Source: an uncultured Bacilli bacterium (GTDB taxonomy: Bacteria; Bacillota_I; Bacilli_A; RF39; UBA660). From it: DNA of 64,000 nt. The stretch is taken from the NCBI GenBank assembly GCA_944368875.1, contig CALVXF010000022.1:217-64216 (forward strand), read 5' to 3'. How positions within the stretch are numbered: position 1 is the first letter of the stretch; each line of letters starts with the position of its first letter. A program made the translations under genes and the position numbers. A model generated the notes under the pieces. That model had not been told where the DNA came from, searched no databases, and saw nothing but the letters and a program-made list of their open reading frames with translations. Below are positions 27,424-58,715 of the stretch, piece by piece.

Positions 27424-27509
27424 GCCGACCTGGCGGAATGGTAGACGCAGTGGATTCAAAATCCACCGATAGAGATATCATAAGGGTTCAAGTCCCTTGG
27501 TCGGTACCA
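27424..27509 (+). tRNA. tRNA-Leu (anticodon CAA), with encoded CCA
   Basis: Acceptor stem GCCGACC/GGTCGGT. Anticodon loop TTCAAAA. Long variable arm. T-loop GGTTCAAGTCC. Terminal ACCA. Confidence 0.9.
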
Positions 27510-27627: not shown

Positions 27628-29250
27628 GTGATTTTAAGAAAGCCTTATGCCTTTTTAATTAAGAATTTTAAAAAGATTCATGCAGTCATGGCTTTGATTT
27701 TGCTATATTTAGTTTATAAGTCTAGTAATCTTATGAGTTTTTTAAATGAATATGTAACTGATCAACCTAGTTATGTAGGAACAGAGATAACAGATACTTT
27801 ATTTAATACTTGGATGTTTTTATTACCTGTTTTAATTATTTTGGCATCTATTGTAGTTATTGTATTGATGGTTAATAAACAAAAACCATATAGATTTTAT
27901 TTTATCAATATTGTTTCTTCTATTTTTGTTATTGTCTATTATGCCTATGCTTTGAATGTTATAGGTGATTTGGAGTTGCGTTTAGTTGATATCCGTATTA
28001 TGCGGGCAGTTCGTGATTTGATTGTTGTTGTTTATGCATCACAACTAATTTCTACAATTGTTACTTTTGCTCGTGCAACTGGATTTAATATTAAACAGTT
28101 TGACTTTGGTAAAGACTTAAAAGAAATGGAAATTAAAGAAAGCGACCGTGAAGAGTTTGAAGTAGAACTAAATGTTGATACTGATAAAGCTAAGCGTAAA
28201 GCACGAAGGACGTTTCGTTTTTCACGTTATTATTATTTAGAAAATCGTTTGATAATTAATGGTGTAGTAGCTATTACATTTGTGATAGTTTGTTTTTCTT
28301 TGTTTATGAATAGTTTCGTTTATAACAAGACATATTCATCTAGTGAATATTTTAATACTAGAGATTTTACAATGCGGATTGAAGATGCTTATGTAACAAC
28401 TAAAGATAGCAAAAATAACATTATTACTGATGAAAATCATAGTTTAGTTGTCTTGCGTGTTAAAATAAAAAAACGCTATCAAAATAGTGATGACATAGAA
28501 TTGGATGTGGCAAAAACTGCCTTAAAGTTAGGTGATACGCGCTATTATCCAATTATGACTTATCGTGATAAATTAACTGATATTGGTACTTCATATGAAT
28601 ACCAAATTATAACAGATGAATATGAATATTATCTATTAACTTATCAAGTAGAAACAGTTAAATTAGATAGCAAAACTAAAGAATTCAATTATGTTGAAAA
28701 TATGGTGTTTACAAAAAGAGGCATTAACCCCAATATTATCCATATAGCTTTGAATTTTAAAAATTTAGATAGTGATATTGAAGCGAAAAACTATAACTTA
28801 GAAGAGGAAGTATCTTTTGATGAAAGTATTTTAAAAGAATCAAAACTTACTGTTTCTAGTGTCGAAATAAATAATACTTTTAAAAATACATATCAATACT
28901 GCAGTACTAGTAATACATGTTATGATATGGTTGAATACTTAAAACCTAGCGTAAATAGTAATTATGATAAAACCCTTATTAAGTTTAGTTATCAATTAAT
29001 TAAAGATGAAACACTAACAACAAATACCATCAATAATTTGTATAATTTATTAAATGCATATGCAACAATCGAATATAAAATAGATGGTGTAGTTAAAAGG
29101 CAAACATCAGGTTTTGGTCAAGTCGTACCAACCAAAACCAAAGAAGATAATGTTGCATACATTGAAGTTGTTGATGAAGTTGCAAAAGCAAATGGAATAA
29201 ACTTGATATTAAAAGTAAGAAATAGTGAATATATTATCAAATTAAAGTAG
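27628..29250 (+). CDS. polytopic membrane protein with large C-terminal extracytoplasmic domain (first gene of the island)
   Basis: GTG start 8 nt after AGGAGG. About 5 TM helices followed by a soluble domain of about 310 aa. No recognisable family. Confidence 0.55.
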   Translation: MILRKPYAFLIKNFKKIHAVMALILLYLVYKSSNLMSFLNEYVTDQPSYVGTEITDTLFNTWMFLLPVLIILASIVVIVLMVNKQKPYRFYFINIVSSIFVIVYYAYALNVIGDLELRLVDIRIMRAVRDLIVVVYASQLISTIVTFARATGFNIKQFDFGKDLKEMEIKESDREEFEVELNVDTDKAKRKARRTFRFSRYYYLENRLIINGVVAITFVIVCFSLFMNSFVYNKTYSSSEYFNTRDFTMRIEDAYVTTKDSKNNIITDENHSLVVLRVKIKKRYQNSDDIELDVAKTALKLGDTRYYPIMTYRDKLTDIGTSYEYQIITDEYEYYLLTYQVETVKLDSKTKEFNYVENMVFTKRGINPNIIHIALNFKNLDSDIEAKNYNLEEEVSFDESILKESKLTVSSVEINNTFKNTYQYCSTSNTCYDMVEYLKPSVNSNYDKTLIKFSYQLIKDETLTTNTINNLYNLLNAYATIEYKIDGVVKRQTSGFGQVVPTKTKEDNVAYIEVVDEVAKANGINLILKVRNSEYIIKLK

Positions 29251-29297
29251 AAAATATAATAAATGTATGTTATAATTATAAAGTGGAGGATGGTAAG

Positions 29298-29957
29298 ATG
29301 AAAAGACTATTATTTATAATGGCTCTAGTATTTTTGCTATTCCCATTGAAAGTAGAAGCTACTTGGTATTGTGATTATAAAGATTTAGCTGAACTTAAAG
29401 CAATTGCTACTAATATTAAGTATATTTATGATTATCGTATTGAAAGTGACAAAGCTCTTTTTACAATTACTCTTACTAATATTTATAAAGAGTTTTATGT
29501 TTATGATGTTAAAAATAATAAATATTACTATCCTGATCAAAATAAAGATATAAGTGAAATCACAATCGATGGATATCAAAGTGGAATTTCTTATAATTTC
29601 GTTATTTACACAACACGTGAAAAATGTGAAGAAGAAACTGTTTATTCCTTTTATGTGACGTTACCAACTTATAACAAGTATTATCTTGATCCCTTGTGTG
29701 AAGGATATGAAAATTATAGTTTGTGTCAGAAATGGAATAATTTGGGAAATATGAGTTATGAAGAATTTAAAGATGATATGCAAGCCTATATAGATTCTTT
29801 AAAAGAACAGGAAGAAGCAAAAGAAGAGGATGATTTTTCGATATATTGGCTTTTAGAATTTTATTTAAAATATTATATGTATATTTTACCTAGTTTAATA
29901 GGAATATTATTAGTAACAATCTATGTGATATCTAAAAAAGATGATATCAAGTTTTAA
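29298..29957 (+). CDS. secreted/C-terminally anchored Cys-containing protein
   Basis: Signal peptide MKRLLFIMALVFLLFPLKVEA after a GGAGG RBS. C-terminal TM anchor. Conserved Cys residues. Confidence 0.5.
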   Translation: MKRLLFIMALVFLLFPLKVEATWYCDYKDLAELKAIATNIKYIYDYRIESDKALFTITLTNIYKEFYVYDVKNNKYYYPDQNKDISEITIDGYQSGISYNFVIYTTREKCEEETVYSFYVTLPTYNKYYLDPLCEGYENYSLCQKWNNLGNMSYEEFKDDMQAYIDSLKEQEEAKEEDDFSIYWLLEFYLKYYMYILPSLIGILLVTIYVISKKDDIKF

Positions 29958-29969
29958 AGGAAGTGAAAC

Positions 29970-32666
29970 ATGAAGAAATTGAAAGTAATTATAAAAAGAC
30001 ATTGGTATTTTCATTTTATGCTTTTAGCTATGTCAACACTTTGCTTGTCACTACATTTTGATAGTGTTAATGCGATGATGGTTTCTAATGGCCAATTAGC
30101 AGGTTCTGGTCTACCAGGAAGCAGCACTAGTACAGAAAAGTCACTTTATACAGCGACATTAAATAAAGGCGAATTTTTAGCTAAAACACCATTTACCTAT
30201 TTCCGTAGTAGTAATATGGCCCATTGGACAATTAACGGGGAAACAGCTTTTTGTATCGATGTTTATATCGATTATAATAAAAACATGAGTTTATATCGTC
30301 ATTCGCTTTATGAAGAATTTACTTTTTTTGAAGCAATTACAGTAAAACGGATTTTAAACTATGTTGACCTTCATAAAAGTGAAGATAACTCTATTTATGC
30401 GATTGCCCAAGCTTTAGTTTGGGGTATTCGAGAAAATGTTGGCGTTGATTTGCTTTTAAAAAGTGAAGCAACGAGGGACTTAGCTTATCAAGCTTATGCA
30501 GCGTATCGTGGCTTTGTACAAAAAAATGGCGAATACCCAGACATGGGGCCTGAAGAAAAAGCATATGTTGATAATGTATTAGCAGGTATGTGTGTTTCAA
30601 GTGCTGCTGGGACTTTCTATGTATATTATTCAGCTTGTGGTAATGAGTCTGATGAATGGCAACGCTATGTTACAAAAGCGCCAGGGACTTTATGTATTGG
30701 AGCTGAATGTGAGATAGATTGTGGTGAAGAAGGAGAAGGATGTAATAATACGCCAACTGTAAGTCTTGGTGGCAAGTGTGAAGGTGGAAGTTTCTTTGAT
30801 GATACTAACAATTGGGAATGTATTCAAGGAGACAGTCAATTTAAAGATACTTCGATTGCTGGTGAAAATAATCCTTATTGTACTTTCTTCTGTCGGGAAA
30901 CAGTTAATTTTAATTTTCCAGCTAGTAATTTCACTTTTTATGGAGGACAATATTTTACGATCGGTTCATCGGTAGCTGGTAATACATGGGGACCTATTTC
31001 CGTTTATGGTATTCGTAATTGCCGTAGTTATTATAAGGAAAATTCTGGTGATACTAATTATATACCAGGTATTGATTGGACACAATTTTTAGCCGATATT
31101 AAAAGCGATAACAATGCTATTAAAGCGGCTTATAATAAATGGAAAACAGCTCAAGGAGAGTTAGAGGCTTTAAAGAAGGCCAAAAAATATGTTACTAGAA
31201 AGGATTGTAATCCTTCTAATAATTTAAAACTAGAGATTGAAGATGAAGATTTAGATAAAGTTGAATGCGAATGCGCTAATGGTGGAACTTATCTTCCTGG
31301 AGCAAATAAATGCTTTGCTATTGTAAATTGGACAATTAGTATGGAAGAACCAGAAAGTTGTAGCTATGAAAAATATAAAGATATTACCTTACTATATGAA
31401 AATAATAAGTGGTATGTCACTAGAGATTCTCTAGAGTACTGGTATCCAACACAATCTAGTACGCAAGTAAATGCTGATGGTAATAAATTTTATCCACGAG
31501 TTTTTTATGAATATAATGCTAATTTGCATACTTATGGTAAGTGTGTAGCTTCTAGTAGTTCTTATAGTATAGATAAAGAAATTAGTAATAAACAAAAAGA
31601 AGTTAATAGTTTGTATAATGCTTATCGTAGCTTAACTGATAAAAGTCAGGCTAAGATTAATAATATTAAGGCTTGCGCGGGATCAACTGCTAAGTATAAT
31701 TTAAATCCTGTTATTACTTATAGATATGATGATTCTGAGTTTTTCAAATCTGGAACTTTAACTTCATCGGGATCAAGTTCTAGTGTTTCAAAGCAGACAA
31801 CGAATAAAGAAGCTGGAGAGATTAGTTATTCTTTATTAACTTGTACCAATGATGGTGGTTGTAAAACAAAAAGTTATACAATTACAGGATTGAAATTAAA
31901 AAATGTTACATCTAATGAGATAACTATTACAAGTCGTTCGACTTATACTTTAGGCAATACAGGGTATCGTTATGCTCTTAAAAGTAGAGGACAAGTTATT
32001 GGCTCAGTCAATGATGAGTTAAAGGGGGCTTATGTTGATTTAGGCGATGATGTCATTCCTTTAAGTTATACTTTGAAGACAGGATATTATAATATTGTTC
32101 TAAATTATTCTAATATTGGACATAATGGATATTTTGATAAATATGTTTCGCAAATAGGTGGTAATACAGAATATGTTTGTCCATTTTATTTAAAGAATGA
32201 TATTTTAGGGTTTGAAGATGACCCAAATGATCCAGATTATTCTAAAACTGGCCCTATTGGTTTAGATATCATTTATCGTCCTATTCAATTGGGAGAACAA
32301 GATGTTGCTTTTCCTAGTATAGATGGTGATGGTAGAAAGCCTGGCTCTAATTGGATTGGGACAACTTCTACTGGGCAAAGCTATGTTGATGCATATATTA
32401 CTTATAATCGAGGAGTTGATGATTATGAAGTTTATGATTTAGAACCCTTATACACGATAGAAATGACGCCAACTGTAATTAAAAAAATTCGAGAATACAA
32501 TAAAAATGTTGGCGATTATAATGATTTTAATTTAACGTGCACAAACGGTAAACAATGTTATAGTTCATTCATTCATTCTGAATTTGACGAATATATAGGT
32601 GGTAGTTGTGGTGATTCAGGAAGTGGTGAATTTAACTCTTGTGTGACTAGTGGAGGTGGCAGTTAG
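29970..32666 (+). CDS. large (898 aa) secreted cysteine-rich protein, candidate adhesin / filament-associated protein
   Basis: N-terminal signal sequence. About 30 Cys in paired patterns (CEIDCGEEGEGC, VECECANGG). No LPXTG motif. Stop overlaps the next gene's GTG start. Confidence 0.55.
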   Translation: MKKLKVIIKRHWYFHFMLLAMSTLCLSLHFDSVNAMMVSNGQLAGSGLPGSSTSTEKSLYTATLNKGEFLAKTPFTYFRSSNMAHWTINGETAFCIDVYIDYNKNMSLYRHSLYEEFTFFEAITVKRILNYVDLHKSEDNSIYAIAQALVWGIRENVGVDLLLKSEATRDLAYQAYAAYRGFVQKNGEYPDMGPEEKAYVDNVLAGMCVSSAAGTFYVYYSACGNESDEWQRYVTKAPGTLCIGAECEIDCGEEGEGCNNTPTVSLGGKCEGGSFFDDTNNWECIQGDSQFKDTSIAGENNPYCTFFCRETVNFNFPASNFTFYGGQYFTIGSSVAGNTWGPISVYGIRNCRSYYKENSGDTNYIPGIDWTQFLADIKSDNNAIKAAYNKWKTAQGELEALKKAKKYVTRKDCNPSNNLKLEIEDEDLDKVECECANGGTYLPGANKCFAIVNWTISMEEPESCSYEKYKDITLLYENNKWYVTRDSLEYWYPTQSSTQVNADGNKFYPRVFYEYNANLHTYGKCVASSSSYSIDKEISNKQKEVNSLYNAYRSLTDKSQAKINNIKACAGSTAKYNLNPVITYRYDDSEFFKSGTLTSSGSSSSVSKQTTNKEAGEISYSLLTCTNDGGCKTKSYTITGLKLKNVTSNEITITSRSTYTLGNTGYRYALKSRGQVIGSVNDELKGAYVDLGDDVIPLSYTLKTGYYNIVLNYSNIGHNGYFDKYVSQIGGNTEYVCPFYLKNDILGFEDDPNDPDYSKTGPIGLDIIYRPIQLGEQDVAFPSIDGDGRKPGSNWIGTTSTGQSYVDAYITYNRGVDDYEVYDLEPLYTIEMTPTVIKKIREYNKNVGDYNDFNLTCTNGKQCYSSFIHSEFDEYIGGSCGDSGSGEFNSCVTSGGGS

Positions 32667-33067
32667 TGAAGGAATCCTTTTGGGGTGTGTTTATTGTAGG
32701 TTTAGGTGTTACAGCAATTGCTTTTATTTATCTTTTTCAAAATATAACTAGTACAGACGAACACAATTATAATATTCTCAAAGAAACAACCGAAGCGGCG
32801 ATGATTGATGCTTTTGATTTAGCTAGTTATCGTTATGATGGAACAATCAGAATTGATAGAGAGAAGTTTGTGGAAAACTTTTATCGTCGTTTTGCTGAAA
32901 ATGCTAGTTTATCTAGAACATATTATATAGATATATATGATGTTAATGAGGAACCACCAAAAGTAAGTATAAAAGTTTCAAGTACTGAAAAATCAAATAT
33001 TACAGATGATGTGATGGAATTTGATATAGTAAATCAATTAGATGCTATATTAGAAGTTCCATATTAG
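32666..33067 (+). CDS. small N-terminally anchored extracytoplasmic protein
   Basis: GTG start overlapping the upstream stop. Single N-terminal TM followed by a domain of about 100 aa. Confidence 0.45.
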   Translation: MKESFWGVFIVGLGVTAIAFIYLFQNITSTDEHNYNILKETTEAAMIDAFDLASYRYDGTIRIDREKFVENFYRRFAENASLSRTYYIDIYDVNEEPPKVSIKVSSTEKSNITDDVMEFDIVNQLDAILEVPY

Positions 33068-33082
33068 AAAGGATAAAAAAAT

Positions 33083-33901
33083 ATGAATATAGTAACAAGT
33101 ATTACAAGATTTTTAAAAAATAAGAATATTGTCACAATCATGGGGGTTGTTGCGGTTGTGGCTATTTTGTATTTTGGTTATAACTATCAAATAAATCAAC
33201 AAACAAGCCCTATTTCTATTCCGGTTGCAAAAGAAACTATTCAACCGGGGACTTTAATAACTAGTGATATGATAACTTCTATTAGTATTCCTAGAATGGG
33301 AGTTTCTAGTAATGTTATTAGAAGTGCTAGTAGTATTGTTGGTAAATACACCAATTATAATACAGTGATACCAGCAGGATCAATGTTTTATACTGATGTT
33401 GTAATTGATCGCGAAGATTTACCTAATTCTTCTTTTACACAAGTTAAAGAAGGTGATGTCGTTTTTAATTTAAATGTTACGACTGAATCAACTTATGGTA
33501 ATTCTATTTTTCCAGGAGATTACATCGATATTTATATGAAAGCTGAAGATGATTCAGGTCAAATCATGGTAGGTAAGTTAGTTGAAAATATCGAAGTTTT
33601 AGCTTTAAAAGATTCTTCAGGACAAAATGTTTTTGAAGATAGTAGTGAAAGTAGATCACCTGCTTATATGATTTTTGGAGTTTCTTCAGAAATTCATATA
33701 TTACTTCGTAAAGCTCTTTATATGAGTGATTATAGTGTTGAACTTATTCCAGTCCCACATGGTGGTGAAATATTAGAAGAAGGAGAAACGCGTGTTAGTT
33801 CAACATATTTAAAAGAATTTATCAATTCTAAGACAGTTAATCTTCCAGTTGAAGATGACACTACTGTTGAAGAAGACAATTCTAATACAGAAGGAGAATA
33901 A
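33083..33901 (+). CDS. CpaB/RcpC-like (SAF domain) pilus assembly protein
   Basis: N-terminal TM followed by a SAF-like segment IPVAKETIQPGTLITSDMIT..IPR and a beta-rich domain. Sits immediately upstream of the TadA-like ATPase, as in Tad loci. Confidence 0.45.
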   Translation: MNIVTSITRFLKNKNIVTIMGVVAVVAILYFGYNYQINQQTSPISIPVAKETIQPGTLITSDMITSISIPRMGVSSNVIRSASSIVGKYTNYNTVIPAGSMFYTDVVIDREDLPNSSFTQVKEGDVVFNLNVTTESTYGNSIFPGDYIDIYMKAEDDSGQIMVGKLVENIEVLALKDSSGQNVFEDSSESRSPAYMIFGVSSEIHILLRKALYMSDYSVELIPVPHGGEILEEGETRVSSTYLKEFINSKTVNLPVEDDTTVEEDNSNTEGE

Positions 33902-33903
33902 TT

Positions 33904-35142
33904 ATGAGTGATAATATATTCTCACAAATGGATTTTGGATATTTTAAAGAATATTTAAATAATGATGATGTTACAGATATTTCTTATGATAATAATGGAC
34001 AAATACATTTAAAGACTTTATCTCAAGGTATTATAAGGGTAGAAAATCCAAATATAACTAATGCAGTTGTTGAAAAACTTGCATTTCAATGTGCGAATGC
34101 TATGGGGAAATCTTTCAATATGGCTTATCCTATGCTGGATGCTGAGAGTGCTGAATTACGTATGAATTTTATTCATGATTCAATTGCGCGAAATGGTATA
34201 GCCTTGGTTATTCGTAAAACACCTGCTAAAATACGACTTGAAAAAGACAAAATTATTGCTGATAAATATATTACTTTGGGAATTCATGATTTTCTAATCA
34301 AATGTATCGAAGGACATTGTAACATTATTGTATGTGGTGAAACCGGTTCAGGTAAAACAGAATTCGTTAAATATCTAGGTTCAAAAATTAAAGAAAACGA
34401 AAAAATTATAACGATTGAGGATACATTGGAACTCCATCTTGATAAAATATTTCCACATCGTGATATTGTTGCTTTGAAGACTAATAATATTGCTACATAC
34501 TCAGACATTTTAGTGGCTTGTATGCGTCAAAACCCTAAATGGATATTACTTTCCGAAGTGCGTAGTGCTGAAGCTGTCATGGCTGTTCGTAACTCTATTT
34601 CATCAGGGCATTATATTTTATCAACAATCCATGCTGACAAAGCTAGTAGTATTCCAAATCGTATGTATAGTTTGTTGGAAACTAATCAAGATATTGATCA
34701 ATTTCTAAAATCAATCTATCGTTATATTCAATTAGGAATATATATTCGTGGTTACCAAAGTCGAGAAACAGGCAAATTTGTTCGTGAAATAGCTGAAGTT
34801 ACAGAATTTTATGTAACCGAAGATAATGAAGCAAAGTATAATGTCATCTATAAAAAAGATTTATTTGGGAATGTTGTTAACAATGATCCTAGTAAATATT
34901 TGATTGAATATTTATCCGCTCAAGGAGTTCAATTGCCTGATGAAATGGTTGATCGTGCCCAAAATAAAAAAGATTCTGAAATTGGTGTTAGTGCTAATAC
35001 AACAATCGAAAAACCAAATGTTAAAAAAGTTACGCCAGTTGGTCCAACGAATAACCCGATTCCTACGAGTGTTAAAACAACTCAAAATCCAATTGGGGCA
35101 ATGCCCAATACAGCTAATGGAACCGTAAGTTCTAATACATAA
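33904..35142 (+). CDS. TadA/CpaF (VirB11-superfamily) secretion ATPase with P/T-rich C-terminal tail
   Basis: Walker A GETGSGKTE, the IITIEDTLEL motif, Walker B/His-box region RQNPKWILLSEVRSAEA, and HYILSTIHA. Confidence 0.75.
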   Translation: MSDNIFSQMDFGYFKEYLNNDDVTDISYDNNGQIHLKTLSQGIIRVENPNITNAVVEKLAFQCANAMGKSFNMAYPMLDAESAELRMNFIHDSIARNGIALVIRKTPAKIRLEKDKIIADKYITLGIHDFLIKCIEGHCNIIVCGETGSGKTEFVKYLGSKIKENEKIITIEDTLELHLDKIFPHRDIVALKTNNIATYSDILVACMRQNPKWILLSEVRSAEAVMAVRNSISSGHYILSTIHADKASSIPNRMYSLLETNQDIDQFLKSIYRYIQLGIYIRGYQSRETGKFVREIAEVTEFYVTEDNEAKYNVIYKKDLFGNVVNNDPSKYLIEYLSAQGVQLPDEMVDRAQNKKDSEIGVSANTTIEKPNVKKVTPVGPTNNPIPTSVKTTQNPIGAMPNTANGTVSSNT

Positions 35143-35154
35143 GGGAGGTGTAAT

Positions 35155-36057
35155 ATGGAATTACTAATGTTTTTGTTCATCGCTTTTATTATAGTATTTG
35201 TAATTGTTTATCGTTTAAACAACGGGCAAAACGTTTATAAATATATAATCGATACGGGAACTAATATTTATAATAAATATGCACCATATTCTTTTAAATC
35301 AGTTCGTGAAAAAGTAAAAGATTTGGGTCAAGAATACACACCTAGACAATATACAATTCAAATTATTACATTTGCAGCTGGAGCAGCAATAGTATCATAT
35401 TTATATTTCTATAGCATTATTACTTCTGTTATTTATTCTCTTATAGCAATATCTATAATTCCATATTTAACATATTTGCGTTGCAAGAGAATTTATAGTG
35501 AGTTTTTGTTTGAACAAGTTCAGGTTTACACAACTAATGTTATTATGGAATTTGCTACAACTCAAAGTTTCGTTAAAGCTTTAGAAGGTGTATATGAATC
35601 CGGTGTTCTTGAAGATCCAATCAAAACCGATGTTAAAGAGATGATTGATATGGCTTATGCCAATGGGACAATTGATCAATCTTTAGAATATATGAATGCT
35701 AAATATGATTATTATATTGTGCGCAATATGCATCAATTATTTTTACAAATTACTAATGAAGGAACTAGGGATAGCGGTGAGTCTTTGGAAAACATGTCAA
35801 TGGATATTGATATGTTAGTAGAAAATGTTTATCGCGACCGAATGGATAGAGCATCATTCCATAAAAAGTTTTTACAATTTGGTATAGTTTTATATTTGAT
35901 GGTCATGCTTGTTCAATTTCTTTTAGGTGTTGAAACTTATATTGAAATGTTAGATAACATTTTTGTTCAATTATTACTTCATGGTATAGTCATAGTAAAT
36001 ACATATTTCTTGTTGAACGGGGAAAAATATTATAATGAGAATGTAGGTGCTGAATAA
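35155..36057 (+). CDS. TadB-like (T2SSF/GspF-family) inner-membrane platform protein
   Basis: Topology is TM, two TM, cytoplasmic helical domain of about 130 aa, two C-terminal TM. Follows the TadA-like ATPase directly. Confidence 0.5.
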   Translation: MELLMFLFIAFIIVFVIVYRLNNGQNVYKYIIDTGTNIYNKYAPYSFKSVREKVKDLGQEYTPRQYTIQIITFAAGAAIVSYLYFYSIITSVIYSLIAISIIPYLTYLRCKRIYSEFLFEQVQVYTTNVIMEFATTQSFVKALEGVYESGVLEDPIKTDVKEMIDMAYANGTIDQSLEYMNAKYDYYIVRNMHQLFLQITNEGTRDSGESLENMSMDIDMLVENVYRDRMDRASFHKKFLQFGIVLYLMVMLVQFLLGVETYIEMLDNIFVQLLLHGIVIVNTYFLLNGEKYYNENVGAE

Positions 36058-36841
36058 TATGATATTTATTATTATATGTGCTATTATTTTGTTTGTCATG
36101 TTTTATAATAAAATGATAGATCAAAACAAATTTATTCAAGAAACAGAACCATATTTTCGCTTTTTAATGGAAGATGATTATGAATTCTTATTGCATATTA
36201 AGTATGGCGCTGATGTTGATGTCAATAAAATGTTTGGTATTAGAGTAAGAAATGGAATTGTTGTAATTGTAGTTATTATGTTTTATTTCCTTTCTAATTT
36301 AAATTTTATTAGTATATTATTTTCTTTTATCGTAGGATTTATAGTTTTTAAATCATCATATACAAAGTTGAATAGATATTATAAAAACAATTTACACAAT
36401 ATTAATTTAATGTTGCCTTATTATTTAAAAAGTTTGGAAATATTAATTCAACATTACACAGTTCCTGTTGCTTTATCTAAATCAATAGAAACTGCTCCTG
36501 ATATGTTTAAATCAGGTTTGCGTAAATTGTGTGAAAAAATTGAAGCTGGGGATTCTAGCGTTGATCCTTATATGGATTTTGCAAAAGAATACCCTGTTCG
36601 TGATTCGATGCGTATGATGCGTCTTTTATATCGTTTAGGTCTTGGTAGTCAAGAAAATAAACAAGAACAATTAATGATGTTTTCAAGAACTGTTTCAACA
36701 TTGCAAAACAAAAGTCGTGAACAAAAGTATAAAGAGCGTTTAGAAAAAATGGAACAAAAAACAATGATGATGCTTATGTGTACTGGTGGGGGTATTTTGT
36801 TTTTGATGTTGTTGTCAATGATGATGTTAATGAATTTATAA
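36047..36841 (+). CDS. TadC-like (T2SSF-family) platform protein, paralogue of the upstream gene
   Basis: Same TM/cytoplasmic-domain architecture as the preceding gene. Overlaps it by 11 nt. Confidence 0.5.
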   Translation: MLNNMIFIIICAIILFVMFYNKMIDQNKFIQETEPYFRFLMEDDYEFLLHIKYGADVDVNKMFGIRVRNGIVVIVVIMFYFLSNLNFISILFSFIVGFIVFKSSYTKLNRYYKNNLHNINLMLPYYLKSLEILIQHYTVPVALSKSIETAPDMFKSGLRKLCEKIEAGDSSVDPYMDFAKEYPVRDSMRMMRLLYRLGLGSQENKQEQLMMFSRTVSTLQNKSREQKYKERLEKMEQKTMMMLMCTGGGILFLMLLSMMMLMNL

Positions 36842-36842
36842 T

Positions 36843-36874
36843 TATTGCTAAAGAAATAAAAAGGTGTTATAATT
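36843..36874 (+). promoter_or_regulatory. sigma-A-type promoter with extended -10 (TTGCTA-17-TGTTATAAT) driving the small pilin-like gene
   Basis: Read directly from the sequence at 36845..36874. Confidence 0.5.
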
Positions 36875-36899
36875 AAGAAAAGATAGGATGGTGAAATAA

Positions 36900-37076
36900 T
36901 GAAAGAAGCTGCTGGAGAAGCAAATTTAACTGTAGTTGCAATTATTTTAATTGCTGTAATTGCTGCCGTTGTTACACCAATTATTAATAATGCTATGCAA
37001 ACTACAAGCGATCGTTCTGACTGCTTGAATAGAGGTTGTAATTGGGATACAAGTTCCAATTCATGTGATTGCTAAT
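36900..37076 (+). CDS. 58-aa Flp/pilin-like peptide with hydrophobic helix and 4-Cys C-terminal tail (not in ORF track)
   Basis: Sequence MKEAAGEANLTVVAIILIAVIAAVVTPIINNAMQTTSDRSDCLNRGCNWDTSSNSCDC. Strong promoter and RBS GGATGGTGA. Position matches flp in tadZABC-flp-tadEF loci. Confidence 0.5.
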
Positions 37077-37106
37077 AAATATATTTAACAAAAGGAGAAG
37101 GTTATA

Positions 37107-37340
37107 ATGAAAAGTAATAAAAGTATGGGAGAAAAAATATTTACCTGTTTTTTGGTTACTGTCATTATAGCCTTGTTATTCTTTCTAGTACTTTATATTT
37201 TGCAACAAACATGTCTTAATGATTGTTGCAAAGAGGCAGGAGGTATGAGTGTTAAGGATGGTGTGTGTGTTGATGTCAATGGAGACCGCATATCATCTAG
37301 TTCTTCATGCCATGATTCTTGTGAGTTTTGGAGGTGGTAG
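37107..37340 (+). CDS. small TM protein with Cys-rich extracytoplasmic tail
   Basis: Single TM helix followed by CLNDCCKEAGG...CVDV...CHDSCEF. Same architecture as the upstream peptide. Start may be the internal MGEKIF. Confidence 0.4.
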   Translation: MKSNKSMGEKIFTCFLVTVIIALLFFLVLYILQQTCLNDCCKEAGGMSVKDGVCVDVNGDRISSSSSCHDSCEFWRW

Positions 37341-37343
37341 TCT

Positions 37344-37802
37344 ATGAGTCAAAGTGTTGGTAGTGTTGCTTTATATAACATTGTTATAGTTTTTTTAGTC
37401 ATTGTATTTGCTTTTTTAGCCGCTACTATTAGTTACTCAAAGGCTTTTCGCGTTAATAGTCGAATTATTTTTGCTATTGAAAAGTATGAGGGTTATAATC
37501 AACTTTCTGCTGACCAAATTGAAGATGTGTTAGAGACTTTAGGTTATACACAAGATAAAAACTTTACTTGTCCAACACGAACTGAAAATGGTCAAAAATA
37601 TGATCCAATTACAAGAATATATAATAATTATGCTTATTGTATTTATTTGTTTCAAGAAGATGCAAGACACTATACTTATGGTGTTCAAACATATTTATAT
37701 GTTGACTTGCCATTTGTACAAGATGTTTTTAAATTGCCAATATATACTAAAACAGAAAGAATATTTTATTTTCATTCTGATGATGATAAGATTGAACCTT
37801 AA
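37344..37802 (+). CDS. N-terminally anchored pseudopilin-like protein (paralogue A)
   Basis: N-terminal hydrophobic segment followed by YSKAFRV...IEKY...TCPTRT...YCIY motifs shared with the next gene. Confidence 0.45.
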   Translation: MSQSVGSVALYNIVIVFLVIVFAFLAATISYSKAFRVNSRIIFAIEKYEGYNQLSADQIEDVLETLGYTQDKNFTCPTRTENGQKYDPITRIYNNYAYCIYLFQEDARHYTYGVQTYLYVDLPFVQDVFKLPIYTKTERIFYFHSDDDKIEP

Positions 37803-37828
37803 TGGTTTTTCAATAGGTAGGAGGAAAT

Positions 37829-38341
37829 ATGAAAGAGTCTATAGCTAATAGTTATATTTTTATGATTATAATTACTTTTATAATTATTATTATGCTTGTA
37901 TTTTTAAGTTCTCTTGCTTATTCAAAAGCTTTTAAAGTTAAAAATAAAATAATTGATTTAATTGAAAAATATGATGATGGTTATGAGCCTAATAAACAAA
38001 CACTTGATGCACAAATAGAAGAAGTATTAAAAGATATAGGCTATCGGATGAGCAACAATCATACTTGTCCAACACGAACATCAAAAAACGGAAGTGCTTT
38101 AACTGCTATTAATACACAAACAAATTATCGTTATTGTATATATAAAGAAGTACAAGGACGAGGTGTGCAATATTATGTTATTGCATATATGTATTTTGAT
38201 ATACCTGTCATCAATGAATATTTAGAATTTCCTTTATCAGGGCAAACTAAAGTGTTCTATGAAACTGTTGATAATCATCATAAATGTAATACTGATTCTG
38301 ATTGTGGTAATTTGAAATGTGTCGATAACAAGTGTATATAG
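37829..38341 (+). CDS. N-terminally anchored pseudopilin-like protein (paralogue B) with knottin-like Cys-rich C-terminus
   Basis: Shares YSKAFKV, IEKY, TCPTRT and YCIY with the upstream gene. C-terminal CNTDSDCGNLKCVDNKC. Confidence 0.45.
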   Translation: MKESIANSYIFMIIITFIIIIMLVFLSSLAYSKAFKVKNKIIDLIEKYDDGYEPNKQTLDAQIEEVLKDIGYRMSNNHTCPTRTSKNGSALTAINTQTNYRYCIYKEVQGRGVQYYVIAYMYFDIPVINEYLEFPLSGQTKVFYETVDNHHKCNTDSDCGNLKCVDNKCI

Positions 38342-38356
38342 AAGAGGGGTAAAATC

Positions 38357-39346
38357 ATGAATGTTATAATTGCTAATCGCTATGGTGCGATGTTACAATC
38401 ATTGGAAATCGAAGTTATTAAAAGATTAGATGGTGAATTCACAGTTGAAGAGATAATTAATCAGTTTCAAAATTTCTTTTATCAAAGAATGATTTTAGAT
38501 ATCACAGCGATAAAAGATTATAAAGATATCAAGAATTTACAAAAATTATCTATTTCTCTAGATATGGATAAAGTGATATTACTATTAGATGATTCACCAG
38601 ATAGTTCATCTAGTGAATACCTATCCAAACTAATTTCAATGGGTATCTATAATTTTACTAAAAATATTGAGGGGATAGTTTATTTATATAATAATCCTAA
38701 TAGTTATCGTGATGTTGCGCAATATCATCAATTAGATAGTATTAAAGAAGTAGTTGTTGAGAAATTTGGACCTAGTTCTGGAACCAAAATTATTGGTATT
38801 AAAAATGTTAATCAAAGTGCAGGAGCTACGACTTTTACTTATATGATGAAAAAACAATTAAGCAAAAATTATAGTGTTGTCGCAATCGAAGTAGACAAAC
38901 GAGATTTTATGTATTTCCGTGATAAAAACATGGTGTCGACAGCAACTCAAGATTTAGGAAATACTTTGGCTAAATATAATGGTAATGATGTTATTCTTGT
39001 TGACATGAATAATAGTGGTGTTGCTGAAGGAATGTGCCACGAAACTATTTACTTACTTGAACCTTCGACAATTAAATTAAATAAATTAATGTTGAGTAAT
39101 CGTAAGATCTTTAGTGAATTAAAAGAAAAGCATATTGTTTTAAACCAAAGCCTTTTGTCTCCTAAAGATGTATTAGCTTTTGAATACGAAGCGAAGACTA
39201 AAATCTTTTATAATATGCCACCACTTGATGAACGTGAAAAAGACATAGAAGCAATGGATCCTTTTTTAATGAAAATGGGTTTTGAACGTCAATCGAATGG
39301 TGAAAATGAGAAAAAGAAAAATATTTTAGGTTTATTTAACATATAA
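38357..39346 (+). CDS. TadZ/CpaE-like pseudo-ATPase (receiver-like N-domain + MinD/ParA-like domain with lysine-less Walker A)
   Basis: KIIGIKNVNQSAGATTFT aligns to the MinD-type KGGVGKTT P-loop, but K is replaced by A. Followed by a VILVDMNN-type Walker B region. Confidence 0.4.
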   Translation: MNVIIANRYGAMLQSLEIEVIKRLDGEFTVEEIINQFQNFFYQRMILDITAIKDYKDIKNLQKLSISLDMDKVILLLDDSPDSSSSEYLSKLISMGIYNFTKNIEGIVYLYNNPNSYRDVAQYHQLDSIKEVVVEKFGPSSGTKIIGIKNVNQSAGATTFTYMMKKQLSKNYSVVAIEVDKRDFMYFRDKNMVSTATQDLGNTLAKYNGNDVILVDMNNSGVAEGMCHETIYLLEPSTIKLNKLMLSNRKIFSELKEKHIVLNQSLLSPKDVLAFEYEAKTKIFYNMPPLDEREKDIEAMDPFLMKMGFERQSNGENEKKKNILGLFNI

Positions 39347-39349: not shown

Positions 39350-39378
39350 GTTGACAAATACTTATAAATAAAGTAAAA
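39350..39378 (+). promoter_or_regulatory. canonical sigma-A promoter TTGACA-17-TAAAAT
   Basis: TTGACAaatacttataaataaagTAAAAT read directly. Drives the 116-aa two-TM protein. Confidence 0.55.
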
Positions 39379-39404
39379 TTAAATTAACAAATGGAGGTAA
39401 TTAT

Positions 39405-39755
39405 ATGTTTATTTTAGATACTGTTTCTTGTGGAGGAATTACAGGCATTCCAGAAATGTTACCAAACTTAGTTAGCATAGGTTATAATATTATTAAAATA
39501 TTTGTTCCAATTGCTTTGATTTTATTTGGTATGTGGGATTTAGGGAAAGCAGTTATGCAACAAAAAGAAGACGATATTAAGAAAGGACAAAAAACTTTCA
39601 TTCAACGTGTTATAGCAGCTGTAATAGTATTCCTAGTTTTCTCAATTGTTCAATTAGTATTTGGTCTATTAGCTTCAGCTAGTGGCGATGATTCAGAAAA
39701 CATCATGGACTGTGTTAATTGCTTTTTAGATAGTAGTAAATGTAGTGCTGACTAA
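39405..39755 (+). CDS. small two-TM protein with Cys-rich C-terminus; VirB2/TrbC-like pilin candidate
   Basis: Two hydrophobic helices separated by a charged loop. C-terminal CVNCFLDSSKCS. Own strong promoter. Followed by a terminator. Confidence 0.4.
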   Translation: MFILDTVSCGGITGIPEMLPNLVSIGYNIIKIFVPIALILFGMWDLGKAVMQQKEDDIKKGQKTFIQRVIAAVIVFLVFSIVQLVFGLLASASGDDSENIMDCVNCFLDSSKCSAD

Positions 39756-39762
39756 TTATAAA

Positions 39763-39796
39763 AATATAGAATAATATCTTTATTCTATATTTTTTT
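39763..39796 (+). terminator. rho-independent terminator
   Basis: ATAGAATAA..TTATTCTAT hairpin followed by TTTTTTTT. A -10 TATAAT follows at about 39803. Confidence 0.55.
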
Positions 39797-39829
39797 TGTG
39801 CTATAATTATAGTAGTTTATTGCGCTCAT

Positions 39830-54378: not shown

Positions 54379-56487
54379 ATGCAAGAAAAAATTTTAGCCA
54401 TTTTAAAAAAAGAACAAAAAGCACTATCTGCTCAAGAAATATATGATTTACTTGAACTAAATAGTGTTGATGATTTAAAAAACCTATTAAAAGAATTGCA
54501 AGTATTAGAAGAAAATTTACAAATATATCGTACTAAAAAAGACAACTATATGTTATTTACAAATAGTCATTTAAAATTAGGTAAAATGATTGCCAATAAA
54601 AAAGGTTTTGGTTTTGTCGATATTGAAGGTGATGAAGATGTTTTTATTGCTCCTTCAAATATTAATGGTGCGATTCATGGTGATCAAGTAGTTGTTGAAA
54701 TCACATCTAAAAAAGGTATGGATTTAGAAGGTCGTATTGTCAGGGTTGTAAATCGCGATTTAAAACAACTAGTTGGGGAATACTATACTAAAGATGGTAT
54801 GGGCTATATTAAATTAGATGATGAAAAAGTTAAACTGTTGGTTTCGATTAAACTTGAAAATAGTTTAGGCGCGATGGATGGCCATAAAGTTTTAGTAAAA
54901 ATCGGCAATAAAATTAAAGATAACAATTATGAAGGAGAAGTTGTACGTATTTTAGGCCATAAAAATGACCCAGGTGTTGATATCTTAAGTATTGTTGCTA
55001 AATATGGAATAAATGATACTTTTAGTGAAAAAGTAATGGATGAAGTAGAAGTCTTACCAAATGAAGTTAGTTTAGAAGAAATAAAAGATCGTAAAGATTT
55101 ACGTGACCATATGATTTTTACAATTGATGGTGATGATACTAAAGATATTGATGATGCGATAGAATTAAATAAATTAGAAAATGGCAATTATCTTTTGGGT
55201 GTGCATATTGCTGATGTAAGTTATTATGTTAAAGAAAATACGGAAATTGATAAAGAAGCGTATGACCGTGGTACAAGTGTTTATCTAGCTGATCGTGTTA
55301 TACCGATGTTGCCACATAAATTATCTAACGGAATATGTTCCTTAAATCCCAATGTTGATCGTCTTTCTGTATCATGTGTTATGGAAATAAATAATAAAGG
55401 AGATATTTTAAAAGCAGAAATTTTTCCTAGTGTTATAAAATCTAGAAAACAGATGACTTATAAAAATGTCAATAGTATTTTAGAACAAAATATTATTCCT
55501 GAAGGATATGAAGAATATGCGGATAAATTAAAAGAAATGCATGCATTAGCGCATATTTTAAGAGAGAACAAAATGCGTCGTGGATATATTGATTTTGATA
55601 TTGATGAATCTAAAATAATTGTTAATGAAGACGGTAAAGCTATTGATGTTGTACTTCGCAATCGTGGTGAAGGTGAAAAATTAATTGAAGATTTCATGAT
55701 TGCGGCCAATGAAGCTGTAGCTACCTACATATATATGATGGATCTACCATTTGTCTATCGTGTTCATGGCAAACCAGATGAAGAGAAAATAACTAATTTT
55801 ATTAAATTTATCGGCATGTTAGGCTATCGTGTTAGTACTAGAATTAATGATATAACTCCTAAAGCAATGCAAAAAATATTAGAGGAATTAAATGATAAAA
55901 AAGAATTTCATATTTTATCTAAGTTATTACTTAGAAGTATGCAAAAAGCTGTCTATGATCCAACAAATATAGGGCATTTTGGGATTGCTAGTAAATGCTA
56001 TACTCATTTTACTTCGCCAATTAGAAGATATCCGGATACTACAGTTCATCGCTTACTTAGAACCTATTTATTTGAAAATAAAATGGGGGTGGATACTATT
56101 CGATATTGGGAACAAAAACTACCTTTTTTAACAGAACATGCTTCCAATAAAGAAAGAGATTCGATTGAATGTGAACGCGAAGTAGATGACATGAAAAAAG
56201 CAGAATATATGATGGACCATATAGGTGATAGATATACTGGAATTATTAGTAGTGTTTTAACATTTGGTTTTTTTGTTGAACTACCAAATTTAGTTGAAGG
56301 TCTTGTTCGCATTGATGATTTACCAGGCAATAGTAGATATATTTATGATGAGACAACTTTCTCAATAAGGAGTAATCAAGATAAACGTGGTTATCGTTTA
56401 GGAGATGAAGTTAATGTTATTGTAAAAGATGCTAATAAAGCAAATAAAACAGTTGATTTTATTATTGATACTAAAGAAGAAAAATAA
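54379..56487 (+). CDS. rnr: ribonuclease R (RNB-family 3'-5' exoribonuclease), copy 1
   Basis: Winged-helix N-terminus, cold-shock domains, RNB catalytic motifs ([29 protein letters not shown]) and C-terminal S1 with a K-rich tail. Confidence 0.85.
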   Translation: MQEKILAILKKEQKALSAQEIYDLLELNSVDDLKNLLKELQVLEENLQIYRTKKDNYMLFTNSHLKLGKMIANKKGFGFVDIEGDEDVFIAPSNINGAIHGDQVVVEITSKKGMDLEGRIVRVVNRDLKQLVGEYYTKDGMGYIKLDDEKVKLLVSIKLENSLGAMDGHKVLVKIGNKIKDNNYEGEVVRILGHKNDPGVDILSIVAKYGINDTFSEKVMDEVEVLPNEVSLEEIKDRKDLRDHMIFTIDGDDTKDIDDAIELNKLENGNYLLGVHIADVSYYVKENTEIDKEAYDRGTSVYLADRVIPMLPHKLSNGICSLNPNVDRLSVSCVMEINNKGDILKAEIFPSVIKSRKQMTYKNVNSILEQNIIPEGYEEYADKLKEMHALAHILRENKMRRGYIDFDIDESKIIVNEDGKAIDVVLRNRGEGEKLIEDFMIAANEAVATYIYMMDLPFVYRVHGKPDEEKITNFIKFIGMLGYRVSTRINDITPKAMQKILEELNDKKEFHILSKLLLRSMQKAVYDPTNIGHFGIASKCYTHFTSPIRRYPDTTVHRLLRTYLFENKMGVDTIRYWEQKLPFLTEHASNKERDSIECEREVDDMKKAEYMMDHIGDRYTGIISSVLTFGFFVELPNLVEGLVRIDDLPGNSRYIYDETTFSIRSNQDKRGYRLGDEVNVIVKDANKANKTVDFIIDTKEEK

Positions 56488-56561
56488 TCTTCTTTTTTTC
56501 TTGTTTTTGCTAGTAATTAATAATGTTTTATTTTATAATATATATGTGAGAGGGAATATAT

Positions 56562-58715
56562 ATGGAAAACATTTGTGGAAAAATCATAAAAATACTTAAT
56601 AAAAAGGGGATTGTAACAACTAAACAACTATATGATAACTTAAGAGTCGCTAGTGTTGATACTATATCTTTTAAAGATTTAAATGATGCTCTAGCAATTT
56701 TAGAAAGAGAGTTTAAAATTGTTTTAACACGTGATGGTTATTATGAATTATTAGAAACAAAAAACAAAAAAGTAGGGCGCCTTTTAATGCATGAGAAAGG
56801 ATATGGCTTTGTTTCTTTAGAAGATGGCAATGATATTTTTATACCAGCTAATAAATTACATAATTGTATTCATAATGACATTGTTTTAGTTAGAACTAAA
56901 GAATGCAATGGTAAATGTGAAGGTATTATTGAAAAACGCCTAGCACGTAATCAAGATATATTAGTTGGGGAAGTTAAAATTATTGATGGTAAAGAATATG
57001 TGATACCTGATAATCAAAAATATAAAATCAAGGTCCAATTTGTAAATCCTGGCAATATTGTACCAGGGCATAAAGTTACTTTTAAATTATCTGGTGAAGT
57101 ACATGAAGATATTCTAACTGGTAAAATAGAAGAAGTAATTGGTCATAAAAATGAACCAGGGGTAGATATTTTAAGTGTTATCAAAGAATACAATGTTCCT
57201 GTTGAATTTTCCGAAGAAGCTTTAAAAGAACTTCAAAATATTCCTATGAGTGTTACAGAAGACGAGATTAATGATCGCCTTGATTTACGCGATAAATTAA
57301 TTTTTACTATAGATGGTGATGATACCAAAGATATCGATGATGCAATATCGTTGGAAATAAAAGATAATGGTAATTATTTGCTAGGTGGACATATTGCTGA
57401 TGTTAGCTATTATGTAAGACCTGGTAGTGAACTTGATAAAGAAGCTAGGGCAAGAGGAACAAGCAATTATTTAGCTGATAGGGTGATACCTATGTTACCA
57501 CCGGAATTATCTAATGGGATATGTTCCCTAAACCCAAATGTTGATCGTTTAGCATTATCATTTTTTATCGAAATTGCTAAAAATGGTGAAATTGTTGATT
57601 TTGATATTGCTGAATCAGTTATACGTTCTAGAAAACAGATGACTTATAAAAATGTTAATAGTATTTTAGAACAAAATATTATTCCCAAGGGATATGAAGA
57701 ATATGTTCCTATTTTAAAACAAATGCAAGAATTAGCGCATATTTTAAGAGAAAAAAGAGAAATTAATGGCAATTTAGATTTTGATATCGATGAAGTAAAA
57801 ATCAAAGTTGATGAAAAAGGTAAAGCAGTTGGAATTGGTCCAAGACAACGAGGTGAAGGTGAAAAATTAATTGAGGATTTTATGATTGCGATAAATGAAG
57901 GAACAGCTGAATATGCTAGCAATCTTGATCTTCCATTTATATATCGTGTTCATGGTTTACCTCGTCAAGAAAAAGTAGAACAAATTATTCATAAACTAGC
58001 TGGTTTAGAATATGATGCGTTAAAAATATTACGCTCTAATTGTATAAAACATCCTAAAGAGATGCAAAAATTATTAGATGATTTAAAAAAACGAAATGAT
58101 TCTAAAGTAGTTCTATCGCATGTTTTACGTTCAGTAAAAAAAGCAGAGTATTCTGATGAAAACACTGGACATTTCGCTTTGGCTTCAAAAGCATATTCCC
58201 ATCTAACTTCACCAATTAGAAGATATCCTGATTTAGAAAATCATCGTATTTTAAAAAGTATTGTCATATATAATCATTATGAATATGAAGTTATTCAAAA
58301 AATAACAAGAGAAGTATCGGAGTTAGCGCCTTATCTTTCAGGCCGTGAAAAAATCGCTCAAGATTTAGAACGTGAAGTTGACAAAATGAAAATGGCAGAA
58401 TATATGAAATCTTTTATAGGTCAAGAGTTTGATGGTTTGATTTCAGATATTTTACCTAAAGGTCTTTATGTTCAATTGCCTAATTTAGTTGAAGGACGTA
58501 TCAATTTAGACGGACATAATGGTAAAATTATTTTCAACAATGAGACTTATACTTTATCTGATTTAAATCGTGGATTAATATATAAATTGGGGATGCCTGT
58601 CAAAGTAAAATTAATTGAAGCCTCAAAAGAAAGACATACAATTGATTTCGAACTAGTTGATGATAAGCCAAAAGTAAAGGAGTTAAAACATGGAAATTCT
58701 AAACAAAAAGGCTAA
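56562..58715 (+). CDS. ribonuclease R / RNase II-family paralogue, copy 2
   Basis: Same domain series and RNB motifs as copy 1. A 24-aa stretch [20 protein letters not shown] is identical to the one in copy 1. Confidence 0.85.

Follow-up and report, generated by a model that had tools for sequence, protein, structure and literature searches.

What kind of protein is made by a small gene that stands between the genes of a pilus and those of a secretion system? This question is raised by a 64,000-nt stretch of DNA (hereafter, the window) from an uncultured Bacilli bacterium (GenBank assembly GCA_944368875.1, contig CALVXF010000022.1, positions 217 to 64,216 of the forward strand). In this window a gene for a protein of 116 amino acids (aa) lies in a dense cluster of co-oriented genes, separated by a 58-nt gap from the preceding 329-aa gene and by an 89-nt gap from the gene on its 3′ side, with a Tad-like pilus module upstream and a type IV secretion system (T4SS) module downstream. 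An earlier note on this DNA had described the protein as a candidate VirB2-like pilin or major subunit. We conclude that the 116-aa product is probably a VirB2-type, pilin-like major subunit of a chromosomal T4SS of the Gram-positive type (MPF-FATA-like), whose genes are linked to those of a Tad-like pilus in uncultured gut Bacilli/Mycoplasmatota with small genomes. The proposal of the earlier note is supported by the similarity to the Pfam family PF18895 (T4SS_pilin), the T4SS gene order, the N-out/C-out topology, the arrays of paralogs and the conserved promoter and terminator. Whether the VirB2-type subunit would build an extended filament or a short conduit is close to an even choice.

The family of the 116-aa protein

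We compared the 116-aa protein with Pfam and obtained a match to PF18895 of 18 bits (E 0.003), in which residues 27–85 align to positions 13–71 of the 71-position profile. When 46 homologs were scanned singly, 23 of them matched PF18895 at E ≤ 0.01 (best value 2.7e-8), and for 3 homologs a match to PF18895 had already been precomputed. One of the 46 homologs matched PF16943 (CagC; a Cag T4SS protein in the wording of Pfam), a family that we take to be the H. pylori counterpart of VirB2. The remaining matches were to scattered transmembrane (TM) families. The 116-aa protein itself gave no match to PF04956 (TrbC/VirB2) at E ≤ 1. In NCBIfam it had chance TM matches only and did not match NF045849, the family of the pilin-like Mbov_0395 of a Mycoplasma integrative and conjugative element (ICE), which one of the 46 homologs matched at E 0.009. 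Judged from these comparisons, membership of PF18895 appears borderline for the 116-aa protein and real for its family, which would best be called a divergent sister or sub-family. Like PF18895, it has a two-helix module that aligns to nearly the whole profile; unlike PF18895, it adds N- and C-terminal tails with an invariant Cys pair, and a longer, highly conserved loop. PF18895 and PF04956 are the profiles by which VirB2-like pilins were detected in Patescibacteria (PMC12102498).

The family is large. A profile search of 1.84 billion representatives yielded 9630 clusters with E ≤ 1e-3 as the limit, or 5272 with the stricter limit of E ≤ 1e-10, and matching stretches occur in 175 species-representative genome assemblies. 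In many clusters the module forms the C-terminus of proteins of 200–580 aa, and entries with a double match proved to hold one module each. No homolog was found by tblastn among the plasmids of PLSDB.

Predicted topology

Hydropathy analysis gave two hydrophobic segments, at about residues 22–43 and 69–91 (the peaks span 21–51 and 63–95), in agreement with the two hydrophobic helices claimed in the earlier note; a single-TM or cytoplasmic outcome was not seen. The loop between them (44–68) carries 6 Lys/Arg and 4 Asp/Glu residues, the N-tail (1–21) none and 2, and the C-tail (92–116) one and 6, respectively. Among 46 aligned homologs, the net charge of the loop is +2 in every case and the tails are acidic. 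Following the positive-inside rule, we placed the loop in the cytoplasm and both tails outside. We also aligned 235 homologs that have the N-side Cys. Of these, 145 start alike, with about 8 residues (MF[IL]L...) and then the Cys. In 19 others the Cys comes right after a typical Sec signal peptide, and in 57 it is preceded by a signal peptide and an extra domain, often rich in Cys or in Ser/Thr. The homologs with signal peptides and secreted domains therefore argue for an extracytoplasmic N-tail. Conservation among the 46 homologs is highest in the loop (0.81), followed by the helices (0.63–0.67), the N-tail (0.47) and the C-tail (0.33), and the low conservation of the tails relative to the loop is as expected if the tails are exposed on the surface.

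In these properties the protein resembles the VirB2-like class, whose definition draws on VirB2/TraA of Gram-negative bacteria and on PrgF of Gram-positive ones. Its 116 aa, and the 100–145 aa of the small homologs, fall within the 50–150 aa of that class. The two TM helices, the charged cytoplasmic loop and the N-out/C-out orientation, as predicted from hydropathy, charge and homolog fusions, are likewise those of the class. It does not resemble the Flp/Tad pilins, as it has two TM helices and no class III leader (G/xxxxEY-type). A lipoprotein signal (TVSC, residues 6–9) was considered and rejected, as only 8 residues stand before the Cys and they contain neither a basic nor a hydrophobic leader.

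An AlphaFold2 (AF2) model made from the 46-sequence alignment is a long hairpin of helices 18–51 and 55–92, with a predicted local distance difference test (pLDDT) score of ∼90 there. The AF2 monomer also has a small N-terminal β-hairpin, a short C-terminal helix and a β-bridge at residue 115. The sole possible partner of this bridge is the N-terminal strands, and the tails are of low confidence (56–70).

Paralogs, arrays and head fusions

The gene directly downstream encodes a paralog of 489 aa. It begins with a signal peptide, continues with a hypervariable extracellular head in which three Cys pairs are likely, and ends in a pilin module (aa 404–488) that is flanked by C404 and C488 and is 34% identical to residues 27–90 of the 116-aa protein (E 2e-9). 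This paralog has only 2 homologs among 5.8 billion proteins, one being 98% identical and the other matching mainly in the C-terminal module; the subtype of the module (ending ...GLGEYFCW) is conserved.

We counted the module-bearing open reading frames (ORFs) by scanning all ORFs of each locus with a hidden Markov model of the family. Their number ranged from 1 to 8 per locus: 17 loci have one, 43 have two and 30 have at least three. The arrays sit between the TadZ-like gene and the VirB6 gene and are a mixture of short, signal-peptide and head-plus-module forms. Because the termini face outward in all solved conjugative pili (bioRxiv 10.64898/2025.12.18.695078), an N-terminal head would be displayed on the surface.

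Cysteines of the tails

The earlier note had also pointed to a Cys-rich C-terminus. The C-tail indeed has three Cys residues (C103-x2-C106...C113), and the C9/C103 pair turned out to be more informative. Among 268 homologs, 235 keep C9 and 263 keep C103; where C9 is missing, this is mostly due to truncation of the alignment. We counted the extracytoplasmic Cys residues of N-tail and C-tail in 149 small homologs: 98 have 1+3 and 43 have 1+1, and the total is even in 144. In the 1+1 class, any intramolecular pairing must therefore join the N-tail to the C-tail. The flanking Cys pair is also retained in the module of the 489-aa paralog, despite its 34% identity. Based on the near-invariance of the two residues and on the parity of the Cys numbers, we propose that a C9–C103 disulfide probably ties both external tails together.

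The small secreted proteins of the Tad-like module (36899..38341) are all Cys-rich at their tails as well: the 58-aa protein ends in ...CLNRGCNWDTSSNSCDC, the 77-aa protein has 6 Cys residues and the 170-aa protein ends in ...CNTDSDCGNLKCVDNKCI. The whole apparatus looks disulfide-rich, and the host is presumably a gut anaerobe.

Conserved transcription signals

The comparative set consisted of 4 loci with an identical protein, 6 loci with distant homologs and 77 loci from species-representative genomes (∼77 species-level loci analysed, out of 175 matching stretches found). We observed the following. The promoter in the 58-nt gap upstream of the gene, P1, which the earlier note had called a perfect consensus, matches the consensus at 11 of 12 positions, and is thus near-consensus and not perfect. 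Motifs like P1 are common at 29% GC. The region has 126 promoter-like sites against 124 expected from shuffles, so that the occurrence of such a motif in a single sequence is at chance level; only six sites score at least 11/12 in the whole window on both strands. We judged P1 to be real because it is conserved across the homologous loci, and not from the lone site. Among 77 distinct loci, 49 have a best -35/-10 match of at least 11/12 5′ of the homologous gene, and in 15 all 12 positions agree. Its conserved form is nearly always TTGACA, a spacer of exactly 17 nt and TAxxAT, ending 22–26 nt before the ATG. As a control, scores of at least 11/12 were obtained in 1.2% of 1677 random 130-nt windows of the same loci, in 0% of the 130-nt regions 5′ of the tadA, virB4, coupling protein and 329-aa genes, and in 2% of those 5′ of the VirB6 and DUF5411 genes. 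A Shine-Dalgarno-like motif was found in most homologous loci, and the 116-aa ORF has no in-frame start codon farther upstream.

The gene also has its own terminator or attenuator, as the earlier note had claimed. The hairpin, a 13-bp A/T-rich stem with a 5-nt loop, has a folding energy of -10.3 kcal/mol, and its 60-nt context folds with -14 kcal/mol compared to -4.6 ± 1.9 for shuffles (z = -5.1). It was missed by the terminator scanner because this program requires 3 G-C pairs. A hairpin of ≤ -6 kcal/mol with a T-run within 80 nt past the stop codon was present in 34 of 79 loci and in 17 of 838 random windows, a ∼20-fold enrichment; a looser criterion did not discriminate (69/78 versus 311/838), and the energy filter was used instead. 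The stem sequences vary between loci.

Downstream of the terminator follow, in this order, an extended -10 element, TGCTATAAT (39799..39807), the motif GAGGAG and the ATG (39845) of the next gene. An element of the TGnTATAAT type occurs 3′ of the pilin gene in 51 of 78 loci compared to 162 of 1679 control windows. This promoter, P2, presumably drives the remaining T4SS genes. The terminator T-tract may double as an upstream A/T-rich element of P2. As P1, the small gene, the terminator and P2 all recur, they form a conserved regulatory design, in keeping with the stand-alone, strongly promoted unit described in the earlier note.

Conserved strong promoters were found in the 23-kb locus only for the VirB2-like gene and for the Flp-like 58-aa gene of the Tad-like module. 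The latter promoter (TTGCTA-17-TATAAT with a TG-extended -10, 36845..36873) scores at least 10/12 in 54 of 64 homologous loci. Both genes are presumed to encode filament subunits. A search of Rfam found no RNA family at the pilin locus.

T4SS and Tad-like modules in their chromosomal setting

The coordinates of the gene, its signals and its neighbours are collected in Table 1.

Table 1. Features of the pilin-like locus (positions in the window; residue numbers for the parts of the protein)
Feature	Position	Strand	Remarks
Tad-like pilus module	33083..39346	+	directly upstream of the T4SS module
Flp-like 58-aa gene	36899..37075		58-aa and 77-aa ORFs together 36899..37340
Promoter P1	-35 TTGACA 39351..39356; -10 TAAAAT 39374..39379	+	17-nt spacer
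Shine-Dalgarno sequence GGAGG	39394..39398	+	6 nt 5′ of the ATG
Coding sequence, 116 aa, ATG start	39405..39755	+	VirB2-like pilin module
Parts of the 116-aa protein	N-tail 1–21; TM1 22–43; charged loop 44–68; TM2 69–91; C-tail 92–116		C9 in the N-tail; C103, C106 and C113 in the C-tail
Terminator/attenuator	39762..39798	+	hairpin 39762..39792; 13-bp A/T-rich stem, 5-nt loop, T-run
Promoter P2	39799..39807	+	extended -10 TGCTATAAT, directly 3′ of the terminator T-run
Paralog, 489 aa	39845..41314	+	from ATG 39845; 494 aa from TTG 39830
VirB6/TrbL-like polytopic membrane protein, 610 aa	41365..43197	+	PF19597 TrbL_4, 32 bits; NF045848 MMCAP2_0566 family
VirB3-like (TcpE/PrgI-like) protein, 109 aa	43218..43547	+	PF12648 weak; PF26592 PrgI_like weak
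Split VirB4 ATPase	43486..45842	+	190-aa N-terminal part 43486..44058; 594-aa ATPase part 44058..45842
VirB1-like cell-wall hydrolase, 552 aa	45862..47520	+	CHAP domain
VirD4-type coupling protein, 760 aa	48253..50535	+	PF02534 E 2e-58; NF045973 CD1115 family above cut-off

The VirB6-like gene starts 1.6 kb and the VirB4 gene 4.6 kb downstream of the pilin-like gene, a proximity characteristic of the VirB2-like class. The two VirB4 ORFs match positions 98–276 and 295–889 of NF045975 (Mycoplasma-ICE VirB4; E 4e-105), and a lipoprotein gene stands between the CHAP hydrolase and coupling protein genes. A two-gene VirB4 arrangement (TraC-like plus P-loop_TraG) is also present in loci L001, L005, L007, L009 and L089.

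The Tad-like module contains genes for DUF5411, RcpC/CpaB-like, T2SSE/TadA ATPase, TadB- and TadC-like, Flp-like (58 and 77 aa), two TadE-like and a TadZ-like 329-aa protein, the last with a degenerate P-loop. The labels TadB/C, Flp, TadE and TadZ come from a reading of the sequences and the gene order, and none of these proteins has a significant profile match. Pfam and motif searches found no A24 prepilin peptidase (TadV/PilD) in or near this module (27628..39346), and the motif G.[GAS]D[VILAFM]K is absent from all ORFs of the window. The 540-, 224- and 898-aa proteins at the head of the locus, and those of 219 and 435 aa within or bordering it, are without a family match.

The locus is flanked by housekeeping genes: upstream, 5S rRNA, TsaD, PcrA/UvrD, LigA, NusA, IF-2, PFL, TyrS, EzrA, ThiI, ScpA/ScpB and a tRNA; downstream, rhodanese, DedA, RmuC, two RNase R paralogs and a sulfatase resembling lipoteichoic acid synthase. 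The GC content is flat at ∼29%. The scanned ORFs (most of the window ORFs of at least 90 aa) matched no relaxase or integrase family. Of the homologous loci, 54 of the 58 whose flanks are long enough have VirB4 no more than 10 kb downstream, 53 of 64 have TadA upstream and 71 of 77 have the 329-aa gene. ScpB and rhodanese recur at the edges of the locus wherever the 10-kb flanks reach; the synteny is old. The median identity is 78% for VirB4, 74% for TadA, 52% for the pilin and 34% for VirB6. Because of the uniform GC content, the housekeeping neighbours, the conserved position and the lack of a plasmid homolog in PLSDB, we regard the locus as a fixed chromosomal one and not as the island of which the earlier note had spoken.

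Some further observations concern the borders of the locus. The RNase R-like tandem paralogs (702 and 717 aa, 54379..58715) each have RNB, CSD2 and OB_RNB domains. A single-domain rhodanese gene (50582..50872) stands directly 3′ of the coupling protein gene here and in L005, and tblastn found it in 7 loci. A tRNA gene (27424..27506), which separates scpB from the beginning of the locus, could reflect an old integration site; the 5S rRNA gene (40..144) is at the start of the window.

The host records are uncultured gut metagenome-assembled genomes titled Bacilli, Mycoplasmatota, Tenericutes, Firmicutes CAG:884 or Candidatus Faecisoma, and one of them is a complete chromosome of 1.49 Mb (OW818670.1, locus L069). 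We take these genomes to belong to the GTDB order RF39 and its neighbours. Several locus-bearing records (L012, L014, L018, L019, L022, L032, L033, L054 and others) are titled 'uncultured Muribaculaceae bacterium' or 'Roseburia sp.', and are probably mislabelled or contaminated bins.

Comparison with known systems

Pilin homologs were not found in MPF-FATA by Guglielmini et al. in 2014 (PMC4027160). According to a 2025 nomenclature review, VirB2 and VirB5 are missing from Gram-positive T4SSs except those of Patescibacteria, which are described there as unique among monoderms in their potential for a conjugative pilus (PMC12857230). According to a preprint of December 2025, the PrgF encoded by pCF10 is VirB2-like and essential, and its loop cysteines, facing the lumen, are accessible to label from outside; VirB2-like proteins are predicted there on most Gram-positive conjugative plasmids (bioRxiv 10.64898/2025.12.18.695078). 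PrgF is the first such protein of a Gram-positive T4SS to have experimental support.

PrgF, and not the PrgA named in the earlier note, is the relevant comparator. PrgF(B2) of Enterococcus faecalis pCF10 resembles the 116-aa protein in belonging to the 50–150-aa class, in its two TM helices, in a charged cytoplasmic loop with acidic residues and in lacking a signal peptide, and the gene order prgF-prgG-prgH(B6)-prgI(B3)-prgJ(B4)-prgK(B1)...pcfC is collinear with the present locus. PrgF, however, has 75 aa, is almost tail-less and is without Cys, and sequence similarity between the two is undetectable. Moreover, PrgF is plasmid-borne with a relaxase, whereas the present gene is chromosomal and no relaxase was found nearby.

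T-pilin (the VirB2 of Agrobacterium) and TrbC of RP4 are cyclised head-to-tail, and the peptide bond is made by a dedicated enzyme. With these proteins (PDB 8cue, 8exh) the present one shares the two-helix hairpin, the termini outside and a positive loop. They differ from it in having long cleaved leader peptides and a short loop, and their termini are joined by a peptide bond where here a disulfide is probable.

The present VirB4 and VirB6 best match families of the Mycoplasma ICE (NF045975 Mbov_0397 and NF045848 MMCAP2_0566; the pilin-like family there is NF045849 Mbov_0395/MMCAP2_0565), and the order pilin-like, VirB6-like, VirB4 is also that of the ICE, as judged from locus-tag numbers. 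The present locus differs in its conserved chromosomal position and in having no integrase or relaxase match. The archaeal Ced/conjugative pilin (Pyrobaculum calidifontis, PDB 8dft) is also counted among the closest known systems. The T4SSs of Patescibacteria (candidate phyla radiation) are similar in their monoderm, small-genome hosts and in being chromosomal, mostly relaxase-less and of MPF-FATA ancestry (PMC12102498; PMC12857230). They also have arrays of divergent pilins near virB4 (2–11 there, 1–8 here) and a tie to a type IV filament system (PMC12102498). The phylum is another one, the partner there is a type IVa pilus and here a Tad-like pilus, and the two are likened by description, not by sequence. 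A literature search, which did not cover all journals, found no description of the present family, the Tad-coupled chromosomal setting, the Cys staple or the head fusions.

Weighing of the alternatives

Several points weigh against a VirB2-type pilin. The 116-aa protein does not reach the PF18895 gathering threshold of 26.6 bits. Alignment of the family profile by hhalign to mature A. tumefaciens VirB2 (sequence checked against PDB 8cue/8exh) and to pCF10 PrgF was not significant (probability 0.3% and 0.2%, respectively), and a search with the profile of the PDB sequences found no solved pilin. The fold searches were dominated by generic helical hairpins, and structure therefore does not discriminate. 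Kinship to classical VirB2 rests on the PF18895 bridge, topology and context; direct similarity is not among its bases. The loop of ∼25 residues is longer than that of VirB2 or PrgF, and extracellular disulfides would require an oxidant in a strict anaerobe. Since the Tad and T4SS modules both accompany the gene in every case, phylogenetic profiling gives no means of choosing between the two. Finally, the expression, the disulfide and the filament are predictions from sequence.

One alternative is a T4SS component of VirB2 ancestry that stays in the membrane, where it would belong to the translocon or form a short stub at VirB6, and is never extended into a filament, with the Tad pilus giving all of the extracellular reach. 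Consistent with this, a conjugative pilus has been seen on no Gram-positive cell (bioRxiv 10.64898/2025.12.18.695078), a Tad-like filament system is already present in full in the locus, and the cytoplasmic loop, as the most conserved part, would fit intracellular docking too. However, a dedicated, conserved strong promoter with a terminator and arrays of 1–8 paralogs with hypervariable exposed heads suit a high-copy polymer exposed on the surface better than a stoichiometric part of a channel; we consider this explanation unlikely.

It is very improbable that the protein is an accessory membrane protein of the Tad module or a minimal protein resembling prepilin peptidases, even though its gene is directly 3′ of the TadZ-like 329-aa gene, Tad genes co-occur in most loci, searches of the window revealed no A24 prepilin peptidase, and the conserved FGMxDLGK loosely resembles the A24 motif GxGD(V/I)K. 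Its own promoter separates the gene from the Tad genes, a paralog stands between it and VirB6, and matches to PF18895 are recurrent. A minimal prepilin peptidase was rejected: the A24 motif is lacking, Peptidase_A24 (PF01478) was not matched even at E ≤ 1, there are only two TM helices and one invariant Asp, and a peptidase would not be expected in arrays or in fusions to secreted domains. A small membrane protein of unrelated origin, caught between two modules, such as a holin, an immunity protein or a Cys-rich bacteriocin-like peptide, might share the small size, the two TM helices, the Cys-rich tail and the monocistronic signals, and weak, chance-level matches to holin and other TM families were obtained. 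Such a protein would hardly be expected at a position fixed across ∼77 species-level loci, in a family of 9630 clusters of which many are fused to secreted heads, with a paralogous module in the next gene and no lysis or bacteriocin-processing genes found nearby, and we give this explanation next to no weight.

Proposed mechanism

For a VirB2-type subunit, the following course may be envisaged. P1, as a strong promoter of the σA type, would transcribe the pilin gene alone; the terminator would stop or attenuate transcription, and P2 would restart it for the genes of the machine. With this layout, and given the function inferred for the motifs, the subunit would be made in large excess. Without leader cleavage, the protein would enter the membrane as a hairpin of two helices, its acidic tails outside and the +2 loop in the cytoplasm. 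The C9–C103 disulfide might achieve, with no peptide bond, what head-to-tail cyclisation does in T-pilin and TrbC. If the model for VirB2 and PrgF also applies here, VirB4 would extract subunits from the membrane pool and stack them on a VirB6 platform, and the stacked subunits would form a tube crossing the wall, with the charged loop lining its lumen. More speculatively, the head-bearing paralog encoded downstream might co-assemble as a minor, surface-displaying subunit.

Implications

The Gram-positive VirB2-type pilin is a kind that has become known only recently, and the present gene is a further member of it. What it adds is a large family in a different setting, a vertically inherited chromosomal T4SS joined to a Tad pilus in uncultured, small-genome gut Bacilli. 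The family also offers handles that PrgF lacks: the invariant Cys pair, which predicts an N-to-C staple; the signal-peptide and head fusions, which fix the topology; and the promoter–terminator–promoter layout, which predicts an excess of the subunit. If the system is non-conjugative, it would bear on the lifestyle of its uncultured hosts, and could aid in culturing them.

Tentatively, and with the odds rather against it, one may go further and picture a 'contact apparatus' of Tad pilus and T4SS, fixed in the chromosome and relaxase-less, in RF39-like gut Bacilli with genomes of ∼1.5 Mb. The 116-aa protein would be its major subunit, and the apparatus would be composed of disulfide-stapled, and in this sense topologically cyclised, pilins and of hypervariable, pilin-anchored heads, and would form a Firmicute counterpart of the essential T4SS/pilin array of Patescibacteria. 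This picture is drawn from analogy and from a relaxase not having been detected. If it is true, these abundant gut bacteria would be dependent on contact from cell to cell, either as epibionts or parasites or in exchanging chromosomal DNA.

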